DNA of 64,000 nt from Candidatus Pyrohabitans jungbluthii (GTDB lineage Archaea; Hydrothermarchaeota; Hydrothermarchaeia; Hydrothermarchaeales; BMS3B): contig MTMD02000002.1 in NCBI GenBank assembly GCA_002010065.2, positions 64,001 through 128,000 on the forward strand, in the 5' to 3' direction. Made by a program: the position numbers and the translations under genes. Below, piece after piece: positions 17,295 to 25,672 of the stretch (positions within the stretch are counted from its first letter, which is position 1; each line of letters starts with the position of its first letter). The notes beneath the pieces were generated by a model, which had not been told where the DNA came from, searched no databases, and saw only the letters and a program-made list of their open reading frames with translations.

Positions 17295-17945
17295 CTAAAG
17301 CTCACAACTCTCTTTTGTGCAGGTGCCTGTAGCTTTGCCTGTTTCAGCTGGGGAATCGCCAAGAGCCTTTACCAGATCCTCATAGGTCTGGAGCCCGCTG
17401 AGCAGTTTACCATTGATAATAAAAGTGGGAACGGCATAAACTCCATAAGACTCTGCCAGTTTTAGATTCTCTTCGAATCTCTCTCTGGCAGTGTTTTTGA
17501 GGAAAGCATCTATCTCACTCTTGGATATTCCAAGCTCCCTCAGGTAGCCGTAAAGTCTTGCCCTATCGCTTATATCGATCCCCCTAACCCAGTAGTCCCG
17601 GTATACTCTGTCGTTAAACTCTTTGAATACTCCCCTATCCTTTGCAAGCTCCGTAAGAAGAAGGGCAAGATGTGAGTTGCTGAACCTCTCGGGGATGTTT
17701 ATTTCCACACCGAGCTGAAGTGCACGTTTTTTTATCTCACCCACAATAACATCTATATAATCCTCATCAAAACCCATCTCCAGAAGCGTCATGCCTCCTT
17801 CTGGTATTTCCGGATGAATCTCGTATCCTATCCACTCTAGCTGAACGTCATGATTCTCCACCAGCTTGTCCAGCGCCTTTTTGCTCAGATAGCAGAATGG
17901 GCAGGAGTAATCTGAAAAAACGATGACTTTGTTCATGTATTTCAC
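17295..17945 (-). CDS. DsbA/FrnE family dithiol oxidoreductase
   Basis: SDYSCPFCY, GVYAVPTFIIN..GLQ, C-terminal CxxxxC. Confidence 0.88.
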   Translation of the reverse strand: MKYMNKVIVFSDYSCPFCYLSKKALDKLVENHDVQLEWIGYEIHPEIPEGGMTLLEMGFDEDYIDVIVGEIKKRALQLGVEINIPERFSNSHLALLLTELAKDRGVFKEFNDRVYRDYWVRGIDISDRARLYGYLRELGISKSEIDAFLKNTARERFEENLKLAESYGVYAVPTFIINGKLLSGLQTYEDLVKALGDSPAETGKATGTCTKESCEL

Positions 17946-17970: not shown

Positions 17971-18219
17971 CTAACTTTTCTCTCTGATCTTAATTAGATA
18001 GATAAATTTCCCGTCCTCTTCACTCATATCTAAGAGCTCATTTCCAGTATGCTTAACCCACGCTGGAATGTCTTTTCTGGTGCCCAAATCAGTGGCTATG
18101 ACCTTTAGAACCTTCCCTGCTTCCATTTTGGATAATGCCTGTTTGACTCTAAAAATTGGCATGGGGCAAGCCATGCCAGAAACATCCAGCACCTCATCAG
18201 CTTCTATCAAGCCTCTCAC
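17971..18219 (-). CDS. tusA: TusA family sulfur carrier
   Basis: LDVSGMACPMP, VIATD.G...DIPAW..TGNELL. Confidence 0.92.
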   Translation of the reverse strand: MRGLIEADEVLDVSGMACPMPIFRVKQALSKMEAGKVLKVIATDLGTRKDIPAWVKHTGNELLDMSEEDGKFIYLIKIREKS

Positions 18220-18221
18220 CC

Positions 18222-18638
18222 TCAGAACGTAAGGACGACGTCTGCCTTCTGAGCCTTTTCCAGGAGGAACCAGGTTGCTCCGACGATGTCCTCAGCCTCA
18301 GGCACAAGGTTCTCCTTGGTAACGTCAAAAATCTGCGCAGCAAGGCTGCACACGTACATCCTTACCTTCCCTGTAGCCTTCAGCGCCTTGATAATCTCGT
18401 ACACGTCTGTGGGAAGCCCAGCCTCAGCCACCTTAGCCTTTATCATCTCATCGCTGCCTTCATGCTCCTTTGAGACCTTCAGATTCTCTGCACCACCTTT
18501 TGTCAGTACTCTGGCAGCCCAGTTTACGAACAGTATGTCAACCTCCATGTCAGAGGCGGCCCCGAGGTAGGCGAAAGCCAGAGGGGTCAAAATTCTATCG
18601 TATGCATCTTCCCTTACAATTATTGCCAGTCTCTTCAT
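18222..18638 (-). CDS. DsrE/DsrE2-like (peroxiredoxin-family) sulfur relay protein
   Basis: KRLAII, MEVDILF..W, VRMYVCS, IVGATWFLL..ADVVLTF. Confidence 0.8.
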   Translation of the reverse strand: MKRLAIIVREDAYDRILTPLAFAYLGAASDMEVDILFVNWAARVLTKGGAENLKVSKEHEGSDEMIKAKVAEAGLPTDVYEIIKALKATGKVRMYVCSLAAQIFDVTKENLVPEAEDIVGATWFLLEKAQKADVVLTF

Positions 18639-18707: not shown

Positions 18708-19286
18708 CTACCTTCTCAGCGCCCTCCAGCAGGAATCAAGAGTCTCATCCACATAATTTAAAAGGCTGTCCCGAATAACACCGTCCAGCTTTAGGGTTAT
18801 CAGCCTGATTGGAAGCCCCATTAAAGTTGCAGTTGCCAGCAGGGGGTCCATTTCCCTGATTTCCCCCTTTACAATGGCATCCGATACTATTTCCATGATA
18901 TAGTCAAATGGTTTAGAGGAACAGATAGTGCGGTTGTCCCTCAGGATTTCTCTGTGCTTTACATACAGGGCATACTCCATAATATCTGGGTACTCATCGG
19001 TAAGCCTGTAGAATACTTCAATAATCCTCCTGAATTTCTCTTTAACATCTTTTTCATCGCCGAGTGCCTCTTTCAGGTTTTTCATGAGAAACTGTACTGT
19101 ATCGTTGTAGAGGTACTCCGCAATATCTTCTTTTCCGTCAAAGTAGTGATATATCGCCCCTATGCTTAGCCCAGCCTCCCGCGAGATGTCCCGAATGGAG
19201 GTGTTAAAATACCCCTTTCTTGTGAAAAGTCTCCGGGCAGTTTTAATGATTTTACCTTTTGTTTCTGTGTCCATCTGAGACCTCAT
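18708..19286 (-). CDS. TetR/AcrR family transcriptional regulator
   Basis: IIKTARRLF..KGY.NTSIRDI...AGLSIGAIYHYF.GKE HTH. Confidence 0.93.
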   Translation of the reverse strand: MRSQMDTETKGKIIKTARRLFTRKGYFNTSIRDISREAGLSIGAIYHYFDGKEDIAEYLYNDTVQFLMKNLKEALGDEKDVKEKFRRIIEVFYRLTDEYPDIMEYALYVKHREILRDNRTICSSKPFDYIMEIVSDAIVKGEIREMDPLLATATLMGLPIRLITLKLDGVIRDSLLNYVDETLDSCWRALRR

Positions 19287-19364: not shown

Positions 19365-20264
19365 CTAGTCAATCATCCCGCCGGCACGCATCGCTCGCCG
19401 TGCTTTCTCAGCTATCTCCTCAGGCACGCGAACCTCTGGTGCGAGGTCTTCAAGGCACCACAACACCTTGGCGGCGTCGGTCAGCTTGTGGTTGCTGCAG
19501 CTTGCGCGCTCACTGGGGAAGTAGAATCGCTTTTCAGGAAACTCCCTCTCAAGGCGGTGCTTCATTCCTATCTCAGTGGCGACGATGAACTCCTCGCTGG
19601 GCGAGGCTCTGATGTGCTCCACCATTTGCTGTGTGTCAAGCACGTGGTCCGCGAGCGCAATCACGTCGCCCCTGCACTGAGGATGGACGAGCACCTCTGC
19701 ATTAGCGTGAGCCTCCTTAAGCCTTGAGACCTCACTGGCGAGAATACGCACATGGGGCGGACAGTACCCTTCAGCGATGATTAAATCTTTGCCGCTGGTG
19801 TTGCGGAGATAGCTCCCCACGTACTGGTCGGGCAGGAATATCGCCTTTTCGTTGAGTTCTGAGAGCACGCGAAGCGCTTTGCTGTGGTTGCATATGTAGT
19901 CGCACGCAGCATACTGCTCTGCCCTGGCTTTAATGTAGCCAACAACCTTCGCCTCGGGTGAGCGTTCTTTAATGCCCGCGATCTGCTCCACGCTCACCAT
20001 AGCCACCATGGGGCAGCGCGCCTCAGCGCTGGGAATGAGCACCTTCTTGTCAGGATTTAAAATCGCAATAAGCTCCGCCATGAAATCAATGCCGCACGCC
20101 ACAACCACGCTTGCATTGCTCTTCTGGGCAAAAAGGGCACATTCGAATTTATTCCCCACGAAGTCCGCTAAGTCCTGCACATCACCGGGTTGAAAATTGT
20201 GCGCCACTATTATGGCGTTGTGCTCCTCCTTGAGCTTCTCAATCCTGCGCTCAAGCTTAGCTAT
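19365..20264 (-). CDS. Divergent quinolinate synthase (NadA)-fold Fe-S protein, probable ATA start
   Basis: NAIIVAHNFQ, CGIDFMAE, three cluster Cys (ARCPM, YCPPH, SCSNH), HPQC, ATE.GM; frame extends upstream of the tracked GTG to an ATA overlapping the preceding stop. Confidence 0.8.
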   Translation of the reverse strand: MAKLERRIEKLKEEHNAIIVAHNFQPGDVQDLADFVGNKFECALFAQKSNASVVVACGIDFMAELIAILNPDKKVLIPSAEARCPMVAMVSVEQIAGIKERSPEAKVVGYIKARAEQYAACDYICNHSKALRVLSELNEKAIFLPDQYVGSYLRNTSGKDLIIAEGYCPPHVRILASEVSRLKEAHANAEVLVHPQCRGDVIALADHVLDTQQMVEHIRASPSEEFIVATEIGMKHRLEREFPEKRFYFPSERASCSNHKLTDAAKVLWCLEDLAPEVRVPEEIAEKARRAMRAGGMID

Positions 20265-20634
20265 ACTCCTGCCCCCTGTAGTTGGCGATCGCCTTCTTCA
20301 GAGCGCGCACGCCAACTTCCTTGCAGCACCTGTTTATCTCAGGTAAGCCCCCCGCGGCGCGCTCTATATCGGCTAAGCCAAGCTCAGCCGCCTCCTTCAC
20401 GCTCTTACCCTCTGCCAGGCTTGCCAGTATTTCGCTGCTTGCTATGGCGGCGGCGCAGTTGTACGCCTGGAAGCGCGCCTCCTTTATCACGTCACCCTCA
20501 ACTTTGATGTAAAACTCCACCTCGTCGTCGCAGAGGGGGTGTACTTCTTTGCCCACGCCGCTGGCATCGCTCAGCATGCCCTCATGCCTAGCCTCGCGAA
20601 GTATTCGAGCGACCTCTTCACCCCTCAGAGGCAT
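20257..20634 (-). CDS. Divergent IscU/NifU-like scaffold paralog
   Basis: PLCDD, FQAYNCAAAIASSE, GGLPEINRCC. Confidence 0.85.
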   Translation of the reverse strand: MPLRGEEVARILREARHEGMLSDASGVGKEVHPLCDDEVEFYIKVEGDVIKEARFQAYNCAAAIASSEILASLAEGKSVKEAAELGLADIERAAGGLPEINRCCKEVGVRALKKAIANYRGQEYS

Positions 20635-21025
20635 CTCCCTTCCCCGCTTTTTTCTTCTTGTAGTCCTCGATTGCTGCCTTCAAGCCATCGCTGGCGAGAA
20701 GCGAGCAGTGCATCTTTATCGGCGGGAGCCCGCCAACCGCGTCGGCGACATCCTCTTTGCTTATCTTCGCCGCCTCCTCCAGGGTTTTGCCCTTGGCAAG
20801 CTCCGTCACCATGCTACTCGTGCCTATTGCTGCGGCACAGCCAAAGGTCTCAAACTTTATGTCCTCGATTATCTCCTCGCCCTTTTCGTTCTTCCCGACT
20901 TTAATGTAGATGTACATCACGTCCCCGCACGCGGGGTTTCCCACCTTGCCCACGCCGTCGGGGTTCTCCATCCTCCCCATATTCCTGGGGTTTCTAAAGT
21001 GGTCTATCAAGGTTTTGCTATACAT
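20618..21025 (-). CDS. iscU: Fe-S cluster scaffold IscU/NifU
   Basis: YS...DHFRNPRNMG, GNPACGD, FETFGCAAAI, LPPIKMHC. Confidence 0.95.
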   Translation of the reverse strand: MYSKTLIDHFRNPRNMGRMENPDGVGKVGNPACGDVMYIYIKVGKNEKGEEIIEDIKFETFGCAAAIGTSSMVTELAKGKTLEEAAKISKEDVADAVGGLPPIKMHCSLLASDGLKAAIEDYKKKKAGKGDASEG

Positions 21026-22229
21026 GGCAGTGCTCGCCTCCTTTCCATTCTGTTCCCTCTACGTAATCCTCAAAGCTGTCCTTAAATGGCGATATATCGC
21101 GCAGGCGCTTAACCACGCGGGGCAGGACTTCAAGCAGGCGCTGCACATCTTCGCGGGTGGAAAACCTGCCAAGCGTGACGCGAAGCGAACCATGCGCCTC
21201 GGCGTGGCTCAGCCCTATCGCCGTTAAAACATGGCTCGGCTCAAGCGTTGGCGAGGAGCACGCGCTGCCTGTGCTCGCGCTTATGCCCTCGAAGTCCAGC
21301 TCCAGTATCAACCCCTCGCCCTCTATGAATGCAAAGGCGAAGTTCGCGTTGCCGGGGAGGCGCTGCTTGGGATGCCCGTTTAAGCGGGTGCGCGGTATCT
21401 TCAGCACCTCCTTAATAAGCTCGTCTCGAAGTTTTGTCAGGCGCTCCGTTTCGTCCTTCATCTCTTTCTTCGCTATCTCCGCTGCCTTGCCAAAGCCAAC
21501 TATGCCGGGGACGTTCTCAGTGCCGGAGCGCAGCTTTCTCTCCTGCCCGCCTCCATGAAACAGGGGCTCAAGTCTTGTGCCCCTAGCTACGAAGAGGGCG
21601 CCTATGCCCTTGGGACCATACATCTTGTGTGCACTCATGGCGAGCATGTCCACGCCAAGCTCTTCAACGTCTATCGCCACCTGACCGTTGCTTATGCACG
21701 CGTCGCTGAAGAAGGCAACGCCCTTATCCTGCGCCACCTCCGCAAGCTCCTTTATGGGCTCTATTGTACCTATCTCGTTGTTTGCGTGGTTGATTATGGC
21801 TAAGATGGTATCGCTGTTAATTGCATCCTCCAGCGTCTCGGGCTTAACGAGACCATATTCGTCCACATCTAGGTAAGAAACCTCAAACCCCTGCTTCTCG
21901 AGCCAACGGCACGCCTCAAGCACAGCAAAGTGCTCTATCTTGGAAACAACTATATGCTTTCCCTTGTTCTTATTCTTCAGCGCAAACCCCTTTATGGCAA
22001 GGTTGCACGCCTCTGTGCCGCCAGAGGTGAAGATTATCTCCTCGGGCGAGGCGTTTATCAGCTCAGCAACCTTAGCTCGAGCCTCCTCTACGGCTGCCTT
22101 TGCCTCCTGCCCAAATGAGTAAAAGCTGGTTGGGTTGCCGTACTTCTCAGTGAAGTAGGGCAGCATCGCCTCAACCACGCGTTCGTCCACCGGCGTAGTC
22201 GAGGCGTAGTCGAGGTACACTCTCCTCAT
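21018..22229 (-). CDS. iscS: Cysteine desulfurase IscS/NifS
   Basis: YLDYASTTP, FTSGGTE, SAHKMYGPKG (PLP Lys), STGSACSS (catalytic Cys). Confidence 0.95.
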   Translation of the reverse strand: MRRVYLDYASTTPVDERVVEAMLPYFTEKYGNPTSFYSFGQEAKAAVEEARAKVAELINASPEEIIFTSGGTEACNLAIKGFALKNKNKGKHIVVSKIEHFAVLEACRWLEKQGFEVSYLDVDEYGLVKPETLEDAINSDTILAIINHANNEIGTIEPIKELAEVAQDKGVAFFSDACISNGQVAIDVEELGVDMLAMSAHKMYGPKGIGALFVARGTRLEPLFHGGGQERKLRSGTENVPGIVGFGKAAEIAKKEMKDETERLTKLRDELIKEVLKIPRTRLNGHPKQRLPGNANFAFAFIEGEGLILELDFEGISASTGSACSSPTLEPSHVLTAIGLSHAEAHGSLRVTLGRFSTREDVQRLLEVLPRVVKRLRDISPFKDSFEDYVEGTEWKGGEHCHV

Positions 22230-22230
22230 C

Positions 22231-22461
22231 TTAAACTTTCCTCCTTATGTACGCTTTTATTATCCCGCCTTCTCGCGCATAGCCAAGATACTCGTTCCCG
22301 GTTACACGGCACCAGGCAGGGAGGTCTTCAATTATATCTTCGTCGTCTGCAACTATCTCCAGAACTTCCCCGACGGCAAGCTTTTGCAAAGCTTCGCCAG
22401 CCTTTGCGAGAGGCACAGGGCAGTGCATACCCACGCAGTCCACGCTGAGCTTTGCCTTCAT
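22231..22461 (-). CDS. tusA: TusA family sulfur carrier (second copy)
   Basis: DCVGMHCPVP, IVADD...DLPAWC..TGNE. Confidence 0.9.
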   Translation of the reverse strand: MKAKLSVDCVGMHCPVPLAKAGEALQKLAVGEVLEIVADDEDIIEDLPAWCRVTGNEYLGYAREGGIIKAYIRRKV

Positions 22462-23594
22462 CTCTCCCGCAACCTGTTTATAACCTCCCCCGCCTCCTGC
22501 GCAACCCGCGCTACGTCTGCCTCGCTCGTGGGGATGCCGAAGGAGAAGAGCATGGCACCGCGGATTAGCTCCTGGGATAAGCCCATCGCCGCAAGCACGT
22601 GGCTCGCCTTCGCTGCTCGAGCCATGCAGGGCGAACCCGAGGTTATGTATATTCCTCGTGAGCTGAGCTCAGCCACGACAGCCTCGCCCTCTACCCCAGG
22701 GACGCTAATGTGCACATACATGGGGTTAACTTCGCTCGGGTGCCCGTTTATCTTGGCTTCGGGCACCTCACGGCGCAGCGCCTCTATAAACTTGCTCCTC
22801 AGCGTGCGCAGCTTCTCTAGGCGCTGCGACATCTCCCTCTCAGCCAGCTCTGCTGCCTTTCCCATGCCCACTATTCCTGCGACGTTTTCGGTGCCCGCTC
22901 TGTAACCGCGCTCTTGTATGCCGCCCTCTATCTGGGGCAGAAGCCTTACTCCACGAGCTAAATAAAGCGCTCCCACACCCTTAGGGCCATAGAAGCGGTG
23001 CGCCGAAAGGGTGTAGATATCTACGCCCAGCTCTTCCACCTTAGCGGGCACTATGCCAGCGGCGCTGACGCCGTCGCAGTGAAATGTTATCCCCCGCTCC
23101 TCGGCGATTTCGGCAATCTCCTTAATCGGCTGGAGGGTGCCCACCTCGTGGTTGGCGTGCTGCACAGAGATTAAAATCGTGTCGTCGCGAATCGCCTTCT
23201 CAAGCTCCTCCACGTTAACGCGGCCGTGCTCGTCAACGCCCACGCGGGTAACCTGCACCCCCTCGCGGGCTAAGCTCTGGAGCGGATGCATTATGGAGTA
23301 GTGCTCCACCGCAGAGATAACCACATGCCTCCCCCTCGCCTTATTAGCCTGAATCACGCCTTTAATCGCTAAGTTGTTTGCCTCCGCCCCGCCGGAGGTG
23401 AAGACTATCTCCTCGCTCCTCGCCCCCAAAAGCTGGGCTACCTTCTCCCTTGCCCCCTCCACAGCGCGCCTCGCTTTGAGCGCAAAGTCGTGCAGATTGG
23501 AGGGGTTCGCGTAGAGCTCGTCGAAGTACGGAAGCATCTCCTGCTTTACCTCTTGCAGCACAGGAGTAGAAGAGGCGTAGTCTGCGTAAATCAT
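22458..23594 (-). CDS. IscS/NifS-like paralog with PLP-binding Lys replaced by Arg
   Basis: YADYASSTP, FTSGGAE, SAHRFYGPKG (CGC codon), TSGSPC; ATG at 23594 after GAGGAG. Confidence 0.88.
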   Translation of the reverse strand: MIYADYASSTPVLQEVKQEMLPYFDELYANPSNLHDFALKARRAVEGAREKVAQLLGARSEEIVFTSGGAEANNLAIKGVIQANKARGRHVVISAVEHYSIMHPLQSLAREGVQVTRVGVDEHGRVNVEELEKAIRDDTILISVQHANHEVGTLQPIKEIAEIAEERGITFHCDGVSAAGIVPAKVEELGVDIYTLSAHRFYGPKGVGALYLARGVRLLPQIEGGIQERGYRAGTENVAGIVGMGKAAELAEREMSQRLEKLRTLRSKFIEALRREVPEAKINGHPSEVNPMYVHISVPGVEGEAVVAELSSRGIYITSGSPCMARAAKASHVLAAMGLSQELIRGAMLFSFGIPTSEADVARVAQEAGEVINRLRER

Positions 23595-23677
23595 TCTCCT
23601 CGCCTGAATAACGCTGCTCCTTCCCATCGCAAAATTGTTTGGAAAGGTTTAAGCAGCTTTAGTCAACATTCTGGTGC

Positions 23678-24526: not shown

Positions 24527-25672
24527 ATGGAGATAATCACCACCTTCCCCCGCGGTCTGCGCTACGCGTGCACACTCGAGAGCTGCTTCACCTGCTGCTC
24601 CCTCTTCGAGGACATCCCGGTTACCATCGAGGAGATAAAGCGGGTGAAGGCGCTGGGGTATAAGGATTTTTACGAGGCACGGAGCGGGCGATACTTCATA
24701 AAGAAGCCCTGCACCTTCCTTGAAGACAAGCTGTGCTCTCTTCACAGGGAGCACGGCAAAGCCAAGAAGTTCATGACCTGCCGCAAGTATCCTTTCTCGG
24801 CGAGCGTGCTTGACAACGGGAGCGTAATCGTCGACGTGAAGTGGACATGCCCTGGCGTGGGGTTTGAGGGTGGAGAGGAGATAACCGAGGCGCTGCTTAG
24901 AGAAGAGTTTCTGGAAGACCTTCTCAAAGGCGGAGCAGAGGAGATAAAGCGAGGCGAGGTGGTTTACCTGCACAGCCCGAGCGGGCAGCGCATCCCGTGG
25001 GGAGCGCTTGTGAAGCTTCACTCAGGCATAGCCGAAGCCCTTGCTGGGGAGGGATTCTACGATACCCTGCTTTTGCTCACCGCTGCGGTGCGCCACCTGG
25101 GCAGCAACCTGGGTGGGAAGAGCTTTGTCTCCGAAAGCGACGCTGCCTCAGCCCTGGAAAGCTTCGAGGCGCGGTATCGCCAGGAGAGGGAGGCGTTGCT
25201 CCGCGAAGTAAAGGCGCAGGCACAGGTGGCGGTGGATATCCTTACAATATACGACTATTTTGATGAACTCTTTGAGTACGAGATTAACCCTGGCTACGCG
25301 GCGAAGAAACTGGGTATAGCAGAGGAGCTGGAGTTCGACGAGGACTTCGCCCGGCTCTTCTCCAAGCCTATATCCGCTGAAGCTCAGCGCTTGCTTGCCA
25401 TGCACACCAGGCAGAGCTTCATGGAGACTTTAGCAAGACCTTGGGATTTGCCCTCAGCCTACTTCTGGACCCTGGGCGTGGCCTGCGTCGCCGACTACTT
25501 AGCAAGGCTGCTTTCAAGCGATGAGGTTACCCGCGACGACGCGCGAAAGGCGCTCAGCATAGTGGACTTCCTCAACAAGCACTTCCGCTCCTTCCGCGAT
25601 TACTACTTCCCCCGCTACCCGGAGCTGGGAATGCAGTACCTGCAATTCCTGCTGGGTGGGGTGCTTGAATAG
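24527..25672 (+). CDS. YkgJ/CxxCC cysteine-cluster protein with helical C-terminal domain (FliB-like)
   Basis: C..SCFTCC, PCTFL..LCSLH...G..KFMTCRKYPF, WTCPG. Confidence 0.75.
   Translation: MEIITTFPRGLRYACTLESCFTCCSLFEDIPVTIEEIKRVKALGYKDFYEARSGRYFIKKPCTFLEDKLCSLHREHGKAKKFMTCRKYPFSASVLDNGSVIVDVKWTCPGVGFEGGEEITEALLREEFLEDLLKGGAEEIKRGEVVYLHSPSGQRIPWGALVKLHSGIAEALAGEGFYDTLLLLTAAVRHLGSNLGGKSFVSESDAASALESFEARYRQEREALLREVKAQAQVAVDILTIYDYFDELFEYEINPGYAAKKLGIAEELEFDEDFARLFSKPISAEAQRLLAMHTRQSFMETLARPWDLPSAYFWTLGVACVADYLARLLSSDEVTRDDARKALSIVDFLNKHFRSFRDYYFPRYPELGMQYLQFLLGGVLE

Follow-up and report, generated by a model that had tools for sequence, protein, structure and literature searches.

The window analysed here, 64,000 nucleotides of contig MTMD02000002.1 (positions 64,001 to 128,000) from the archaeon Candidatus Pyrohabitans jungbluthii, contains a tight run of minus-strand genes headed by a paralog of the cysteine desulfurase gene iscS, which we designate iscS* for both gene and product, and whose deduced protein lacks the Schiff-base lysine. 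It is followed by tusA, a Lys-bearing iscS, iscU, a divergent iscU (iscU2), a nadA paralog, a tetR-type gene, dsrE, a second tusA and a gene for a DsbA-like protein (Table 1). The sequence gives good support for iscS* being a pseudo-desulfurase, and we tentatively propose that it relays persulfide sulfur from TusA into the neighbouring IscS-IscU system.

The iscS* gene and its product

The product of iscS* matches PF00266 (E 3e-78) and has the class V aminotransferase fold with the long Cys loop of type I proteins. Its predicted model, with a mean predicted local distance difference test score (pLDDT) of 93 and low confidence in the Cys loop, gives template modelling (TM) scores of 0.92-0.96 with the best-ranked IscS/NFS1 structures. 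Among curated models, iscS* falls below the cut-off of TIGR03402 (440 against 531) and of the TIGR02006 equivalog, and lies slightly above that of the subfamily model NF002806 (310 vs 304). An alternative ATG lies upstream, at position 23627.

Residues were mapped onto Escherichia coli IscS via a close homolog. As the first-pass annotation had reported, the ORF is intact, the position of the Schiff-base lysine is occupied by Arg200, in the motif SAHRFYGPKG that begins at residue 197, DGVSA replaces the usual glutamine motif, and the loop cysteine is retained in SGSPC. The Arg200 codon, CGC, is three changes away from AAA or AAG. The mapping added three further changes: Arg354 is replaced by Leu349, the Asn155 position is occupied by His149, and the chain terminates at the equivalent of E. 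coli residue 383. Conversely, His98 (H104 in E. coli), Asp174 (D180), Thr235 (T243) and Cys323 (C328) are unchanged. Desulfurases are described as strictly conserving Lys, Arg, His and Cys in the active site (PMC8918507), and E. coli IscS is impaired by changes at Asp180, Gln183 or Lys206 (PMC9978102). With four catalytic or substrate-binding residues gone together, as in Archaeoglobus fulgidus IscS, and with the gene under purifying selection, the earlier assignment as a pseudo-desulfurase is well supported at the level of sequence. A B6 cofactor, either pyridoxamine phosphate (PMP) or pyridoxal phosphate, would still be held non-covalently. The label 'cysteine desulfurase', under which proteins of this type are annotated, is probably wrong.

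A lysine concealed by sequencing error was sought by comparing contigs, rather than raw reads, from X5, a run not flagged as a possible source of the assembly, and X2, a possible source; both cover the Arg200 codon, with 0 differences. Orthologs of iscS* occur without stops in 10/10 genomes of the same family (57-97% identity), and none has the lysine (Arg in 7, His in 3). Over the 11 family genomes, position 200 is thus Arg in 8 (CGC in 5, AGG in 2, CGG in 1) and His in 3. The ratio of nonsynonymous to synonymous substitution (dN/dS) is 0.089-0.135 for iscS* (4 pairs), compared with 0.048-0.077 for the neighbouring Lys-bearing IscS and 0.033-0.049 for a third paralog (3 pairs each). Because the second assembly agrees, the orthologs are conserved and dN/dS is around 0.1, we conclude that the gene is real and maintained. 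The four altered catalytic positions and a dN/dS above that of two paralogs might have pointed to a sequencing error or a decaying pseudogene, which the identical second assembly, the intact orthologs, the dN/dS value and the encoding of Arg by three codons practically rule out.

The change from Lys to Arg had been singled out as a signal in itself, and this did not hold. Lys is absent from 119 of the 120 best homologs of iscS*, and across the clade its position varies freely (Q, R, T, P, S, H). By comparison, Asp174 is conserved in 86/86 clade members, His98 in 84/86 and Thr235 in 80/86, and the Asn155 position is variable. One member of the iscS* sub-lineage, P0013, carries Lys at position 200, yet misses Arg354 and Gln183; its lysine is possibly due to drift, AGG to AAG being one step.

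In E. coli, IscU contacts IscS at helix 8 (309-316), Glu347 and the C-terminal helix (379-391), and a deletion of residues 376-404 abolishes IscU binding (PMC2854127). The C-terminal SP tail is missing from 13/13 proteins of the iscS* sub-lineage, in which Met315 is replaced by Ala, Ser or Gln, and is kept in 49/49 other full-length proteins of the clade and in 101/104 Lys-less genes of the locus sets described below. It is also retained by the Lys-bearing neighbour and by a second Lys-less IscS encoded on contig C8 of the same genome. A role as cluster ligand in a complex with IscU, of the Archaeoglobus type and one of the two functions first suggested for iscS*, is unlikely because the IscU dock is lost. 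Given this loss, and with a Lys-bearing iscS adjacent, iscS* gives the impression of having specialised in TusA and the active paralog at the expense of IscU. In 9/11 family genomes the sub-lineage iscS* precedes the Lys-bearing iscS, and in a tenth (G007) the adjacency can be deduced across an insertion sequence; tusA lies between both genes in 8/11. The contig break in G007 falls between iscS* and iscS, at ends (L090 1-165, L121 1-190) that we take to be IS200/IS605-like.

A predicted complex of two iscS* subunits with TusA reached an interaction prediction score from aligned errors (ipSAE) of 0.69, compared with 0.00 for the best of 3 controls; model runs agreed in at least 95% of contacts, with a partner pLDDT of at least 87. 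TusA residues 8-20, which include Cys14, are predicted to contact the loop 323-329 and helix 99-107 of one subunit and, in trans, residues 83 and 215-230 of the other. This is the geometry of the solved E. coli IscS-TusA complex (PMC2854127), and Cys14 of the TusA CP motif is invariant in 20/20 sequences. When compared with the E. coli IscS-TusA (3LVJ) and IscS-IscU (3LVL) structures, the model likewise places TusA at the loop Cys in trans, with overlap at F89 and R220-R237 (PMC2854127), whereas the helix-2 contacts (W45, E49, D52 and R55; here 39, 43, 46 and 49) are not among its confident contacts. Furthermore, E. coli IscS is an active donor, unlike iscS*, which is without the catalytic residues to form persulfide from cysteine. 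Gene context and the modelled complex thus favour the other function suggested earlier, a putative persulfide acceptor working with TusA.

We found no match for SufBD (SufB/SmsB) in the source genome, which is 99.95% complete, although 14/14 control genomes matched; SufBD was present in 3/41 genomes searched and 0/11 of this family. The only IscU genes in the source genome are the two of this operon, whose iscS-iscU appears to be the sole Fe-S scaffold system of the cell. No HscA, HscB or IscA was seen among the operon genes, the rest of the genome not having been searched for them. The genome also contains dsrA, a gene of dissimilatory sulfite reductase. The Lys-less iscS on contig C8 (C8:42885-44039) lies directly behind its own tusA (pair G000:C8:42885-44334, L111); it encodes SAHTM and an intact IscU tail, has no iscU with it, and the pair is conserved in 9/9 family genomes fetched. 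Its product is a candidate for serving the operon's IscU from a distance.

Lys-less IscS proteins in other genomes

To relate the loss of Lys to gene context, three locus sets were scored alike: the best 80 of 597 GTDB hits, the best 30 of 48 Dehalococcoidia genomes (matching genomes from the class of G041) and the best 80 of 578 metagenome hits. Genes cut before a given column were omitted from that column, those cut before the Lys column were left unscored, one locus (L004 = L158) sits in two sets, and many loci stop at contig edges. A tusA within 2.5 kb on the same strand accompanied 19/34, 11/15 and 35/61 Lys-less genes in the three sets (65/110 in total), against 0/47, 0/15 and 0/19 Lys-bearing genes (0/81). 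DsrE was nearby in 41/110 and 0/81, either TusA or DsrE in 70/110 and 0/81, and iscU in 82/110 and 32/81, respectively. Likewise, Arg354 was kept in 2/104 Lys-less and 80/80 Lys-bearing genes, and Gln183 in 3/110 and 81/81. All Lys-less genes kept the loop Cys (106/106) and Asp180 (110/110). In these short loci, only 1/110 Lys-less genes had a Lys-bearing iscS in the same locus, G058 being a further case in a longer stretch.

Trees were built with FastTree and from reduced sets of 36 and 52 rows. They place iscS*, the C8 copy and bacterial proteins in one supported clade (99/98); in the best tree, the SSND proteins (100/99), which are those closest to A. fulgidus IscS, and a small group that keeps Arg lie outside this large clade. 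The data remain compatible with one origin shared by the large clade and the SSND clade (approximately unbiased (AU) test, p=0.165; 36 rows, trait columns included). The best trees suggest, without establishing it, a convergent loss of Lys with repeated recruitment of TusA.

The genome G036 (100% complete, 4% contaminated) contains two Lys-less IscS, one of which retains Arg354, and neither SufBD nor a Lys-bearing desulfurase was found in it; its one other class V protein resembles an ordinary aminotransferase. Its operon on contig C21 (L127 5381-9370) consists of genes for a DsrE-like protein, a small thioredoxin-like protein and a long IscU, together with tusA and two different Lys-less iscS. 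From this gene content, it seems that a cell can rely on Lys-less IscS and TusA as its only system. A general replacement of the active enzyme by Lys-less IscS was considered and rejected, since it holds for G036 and is contradicted by the Dehalococcoidia and by G017, which has a type II-like protein; G018, G026 and G034 are only 80-81% complete.

Two other features recur around Lys-less genes. Genes resembling thioredoxin reductase accompany Lys-less iscS in both lineages, at 8 loci against 1 (L001, L003, L004, L029, L030, L096, L100, L104), where their products would be a possible reductant for persulfide. At loci L220, L229, L245 and L271, where iscU adjoins the gene, the Cys loop of the Lys-less IscS carries an acidic insertion of 7 residues.

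Among the nearest described systems is that of A. fulgidus IscS, which is Lys-less and inactive, holds PMP and has been proposed to donate a Cys ligand, the sulfur source of such Lys-less IscS-IscU pairs being stated as an open question (PMC8918507). Like A. fulgidus IscS2 (PDB 4EB5, 4EB7 and 4HVK; D199K variant 4R5F), iscS* has an IscS fold (TM 0.92-0.94), has lost Lys, Gln183 and Arg354 while keeping the loop Cys, and comes from a sulfide-producing host. They differ in that the Lys site is Arg in iscS* and Asp in A. fulgidus, whose SSND-type relatives are separate in the best tree, one origin remaining compatible; 4EB5 scores 455 bits with L100 and 332 with iscS*. The A. fulgidus protein also keeps an SPL tail and binds IscU, whereas iscS* is tail-less and lies beside a Lys-bearing IscS. 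In Methanosarcina acetivorans, IscS1 (MA0808) is also without the catalytic Lys, and the isc1 cluster includes a SirA-like protein of the TusA family (MA0810) and a DsrE-superfamily protein (MA0809), comparable to the operon described here (PMC7585200, Fig. S1 legend). Unlike this operon, isc1 has a direct iscS1-iscU1 pair and no Lys-bearing iscS; its neighbours are termed genes of unknown function in that account, which proposes no relay for them (PMC7585200).

PDB entry 9WFY ('cysteine desulfurase', 406 aa), whose series gives the best PDB sequence hits, is without Lys, Gln and Arg, like iscS*, and 9WFE, 9WFB, 9WF8, 9WEW, 9WER and 9WEP are variants that restore these residues stepwise; others are thus already working on this Lys-less clade. 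A close homolog of 9WFY, L223, groups with iscS* in the large Lys-less clade (SH-like approximate likelihood ratio test, SH-aLRT, 99). In contrast to iscS*, 9WFY keeps an SPF tail, and neither tusA nor iscU lies close to its homologs at loci L223, L225 and L264; the iscS genes of these three loci lie behind an uncharacterised co-oriented gene. Our literature search, outside of which most subscription journals lie, found no paper on the 9WFY series and none tying Lys-less IscS to TusA or DsrE as a sulfur route. Finally, the operon resembles the minimal system MIS (MisS/MisU), called the least studied Fe-S system, in that no scaffold system was found beyond a clustered iscS-iscU core, although MIS is described as having two components and the operon adds a dead paralog, TusA, a second IscU and a NadA paralog (PMC13066941).

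Possible roles of iscS*

The product of iscS* shares with A. fulgidus IscS a dead active site and a live loop Cys, yet it is neither an active IscS nor, with its dock lost, a full member of the A. fulgidus type. The dead type of IscS is already published; what is new is a tail-less, Lys-less copy coupled to TusA and to a Lys-bearing IscS. Our preferred reading, to which we give a probability of about 0.45, is that iscS* is a pseudo-enzyme acting as a TusA persulfide relay that brings sulfane sulfur into the IscS-IscU system. TusA would be loaded by DsrE, proteins of this family passing sulfur to TusA in other organisms (PMC11094781), or by other sulfane-sulfur donors; it would then dock with its Cys14 across the iscS* dimer and exchange sulfane sulfur with loop Cys323. 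Sulfur would flow inward, to the neighbouring system, instead of being drawn from free cysteine. Since iscS* has lost the IscU dock, the last hand-off would have to use a partner, for which our preferred guess is the Lys-bearing IscS in a mixed dimer, with IscU2 or the NadA paralog as alternatives.

Several points weigh against this relay. The hand-off through a partner is its weakest step, the inward direction is inferred and opposed to the textbook one, from IscS to TusA, and the relay as a whole is argued from sequence, gene context and a model. The score of the modelled complex may reflect memory of the solved E. coli IscS-TusA, that is, likeness rather than binding, and the ipSAE mark was reached by 116/157 solved and 2/215 mismatched pairs, counts that are only rough, with our own alignments lying outside the calibration. 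Within the family, the iscS* ortholog of G009 has left the operon and lies apart from the Lys-bearing iscS, and tusA is adjacent in 0/3 orthologs of genus g2. The locus sets comprise best-scoring hits only and their kin are not independent, hence no p-value is attached to the link with tusA; moreover, most Lys-less genes belong to one clade, and its single origin with the SSND clade was not rejected. In Dehalococcoidia genomes, Lys is present in every one of the 12 second IscS copies retrieved, and because many Lys-less genomes also have a Lys-bearing IscS, TusA sulfur could still derive from cysteine. The source genome itself encodes a type II-like desulfurase on contig C13.

Flow in the opposite direction is rather unlikely in our estimation. 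In that case, iscS* would be a non-catalytic subunit of a mixed dimer that diverts cysteine persulfide outward to TusA, for use in thio-cofactors, in tRNA thiolation or by the NadA paralog. Its adjacency to the Lys-bearing iscS, the loss of the IscU dock with a predicted retention of TusA binding, and the known transfer from IscS to TusA in trans (PMC2854127) all agree with it, as do the orthologs of the NadA paralog (at least 54% identity) in 9/11 family genomes and in none outside the family at that level; a dedicated NifS-NadA pair exists in Bacillus subtilis (PMC13066941). However, a Lys-bearing iscS hardly ever shares the locus in the wider clade, G036 has no Lys-bearing IscS at all, and a pure docking subunit would have no need of an invariant Cys323. 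That Cys323 instead serves as fourth ligand to a [2Fe-2S] cluster assembled on IscU directly from sulfide, with TusA incidental or a helper, we judge quite improbable. This role was proposed for the IscS of A. fulgidus, itself a sulfide producer (PMC8918507), and the losses of Lys, Gln and Arg matching those in 4EB5, the dsrA in the genome and the frequency of iscU near Lys-less genes would all suit it. The uniform absence of the SP tail and the substitution of Met315 in the sub-lineage speak against it, as deleting the tail region abolishes IscU binding in E. coli (PMC2854127), and the tail-bearing C8 copy is a better candidate.

Equally, we see little prospect for iscS* as a regulator, which would adjust the Lys-bearing IscS, as a dead subunit or a sulfur sensor, through heterodimers or by sequestering TusA; it shares the operon with that copy, its dN/dS (~0.10 against 0.05-0.08) is the higher and its dock is lost, but the clade is also found without a Lys-bearing neighbour, and Cys323 and the cofactor pocket are conserved. 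That same conservation, at Asp174, His98 and Thr235, shows the pocket to be under selection and leaves a slim chance for a Lys-independent B6 enzyme, in which PMP would condense with a keto substrate, such as 3-mercaptopyruvate, and form the same ketimine, from which Cys323 would take the sulfur. PMP enzymes in which His replaces Lys exist, namely E1 dehydrase and ColD. A. fulgidus IscS also holds PMP to a purpose left unexplained (PMC8918507). On the other hand, with the carboxylate-binding Arg354 lost along with Lys in 102/104 genes and Asn155 variable, an alpha-keto acid would find no anchor.

A bolder extension of the relay, which we hold to be improbable, joins an IscU-binding active IscS and a dock-less iscS* in one mixed dimer, the latter taking sulfane sulfur from TusA/DsrE, so that a single scaffold would have a dual input, drawing on cysteine or on the sulfide pool. 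This arrangement would be a specialised branch of a cysteine-independent TusA-IscS*-IscU route, one that would be widespread and, in genomes like G036, the only Fe-S system present. If true, such mixed dimers would depart from the homodimers described for desulfurases (PMC8918507). The link to TusA/DsrE makes the question of the sulfur source testable with small soluble proteins. The locus is a natural experiment in this respect: a single operon combines TusA and two IscU with a dead and a Lys-bearing IscS, another dead copy that retains the IscU dock is encoded elsewhere, and there is no SUF or SMS backup.

Other genes of the operon

The Lys-bearing IscS is 46% identical to iscS* and plausibly active, judging from its residues, although it carries DACIS instead of DAVQ, with Ile at the Gln183 position. 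Ile at this position (DACIS or DACIA) was seen in every family member inspected and in G019, in contrast to Gln in 81/81 other Lys-bearing genes. In IscU2, the YS..DHF motif usually found at the N-terminus is absent and the His/Cys ligand positions read Cys-Cys; this second IscU occurs in 9/10 family relatives. A co-occurrence of iscS* with IscU2 was rejected, as G013 and G019 have two iscU after iscS and no iscS* ortholog.

Table 1. Coordinates of iscS*, its key codons and the genes that follow it, by position in the window
Feature	Position	Strand	Basis or remark
iscS*, Lys/Arg/Gln-less IscS paralog, 378 aa, C-terminally shortened	22458..23594	-	intact ORF, profile matches, model
Ser177 in DGVSA (174-178), replaces Gln183	23064..23066	-	mapping to E. 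coli IscS
Arg200 (CGC), Schiff-base Lys position = E. coli K206	22995..22997	-	alignment, codon, second assembly
Cys323 in SGSPC (319-323), mobile-loop cysteine = E. coli C328	22626..22628	-	86/86 aligned clade members
Leu349, replaces substrate-carboxylate Arg354	22548..22550	-	mapping to E. coli IscS
tusA, 76 aa, Cys14 in CP motif	22231..22461	-	4-nt overlap with iscS* stop
Lys-bearing iscS/nifS, 403 aa; Lys, Arg, Cys and SPF tail kept	21018..22229	-	TIGR03402 539, cut-off 530.75; 1-nt gap after tusA
iscU/nifU scaffold, canonical	20618..21025	-	profile matches
iscU2, second, divergent iscU (HPLCDD...NCAAA...RCC)	20257..20634	-	profile matches, family comparison
nadA paralog, probable start ATA 20264	19365..20264	-	Met at that position in G007 and G009 orthologs
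TetR-family regulator, co-oriented; operon membership putative	18708..19286	-	same order in G007, G009
DsrE-family sulfur carrier	18222..18638	-	downstream in G000, G007, G009; not in G004
second tusA	17971..18219	-	profile matches
DsbA/FrnE-like thioredoxin-fold protein (CPFC); membership uncertain	17295..17945	-	profile match

The genome carries another nadA, outside this operon, at C2:486476-487303. Upstream of iscS* and divergent from it, a plus-strand gene (24527-25672) encodes a CxxCxxCC protein (PF03692), a possible Fe-S client, in all loci seen from genera g1 and g3.

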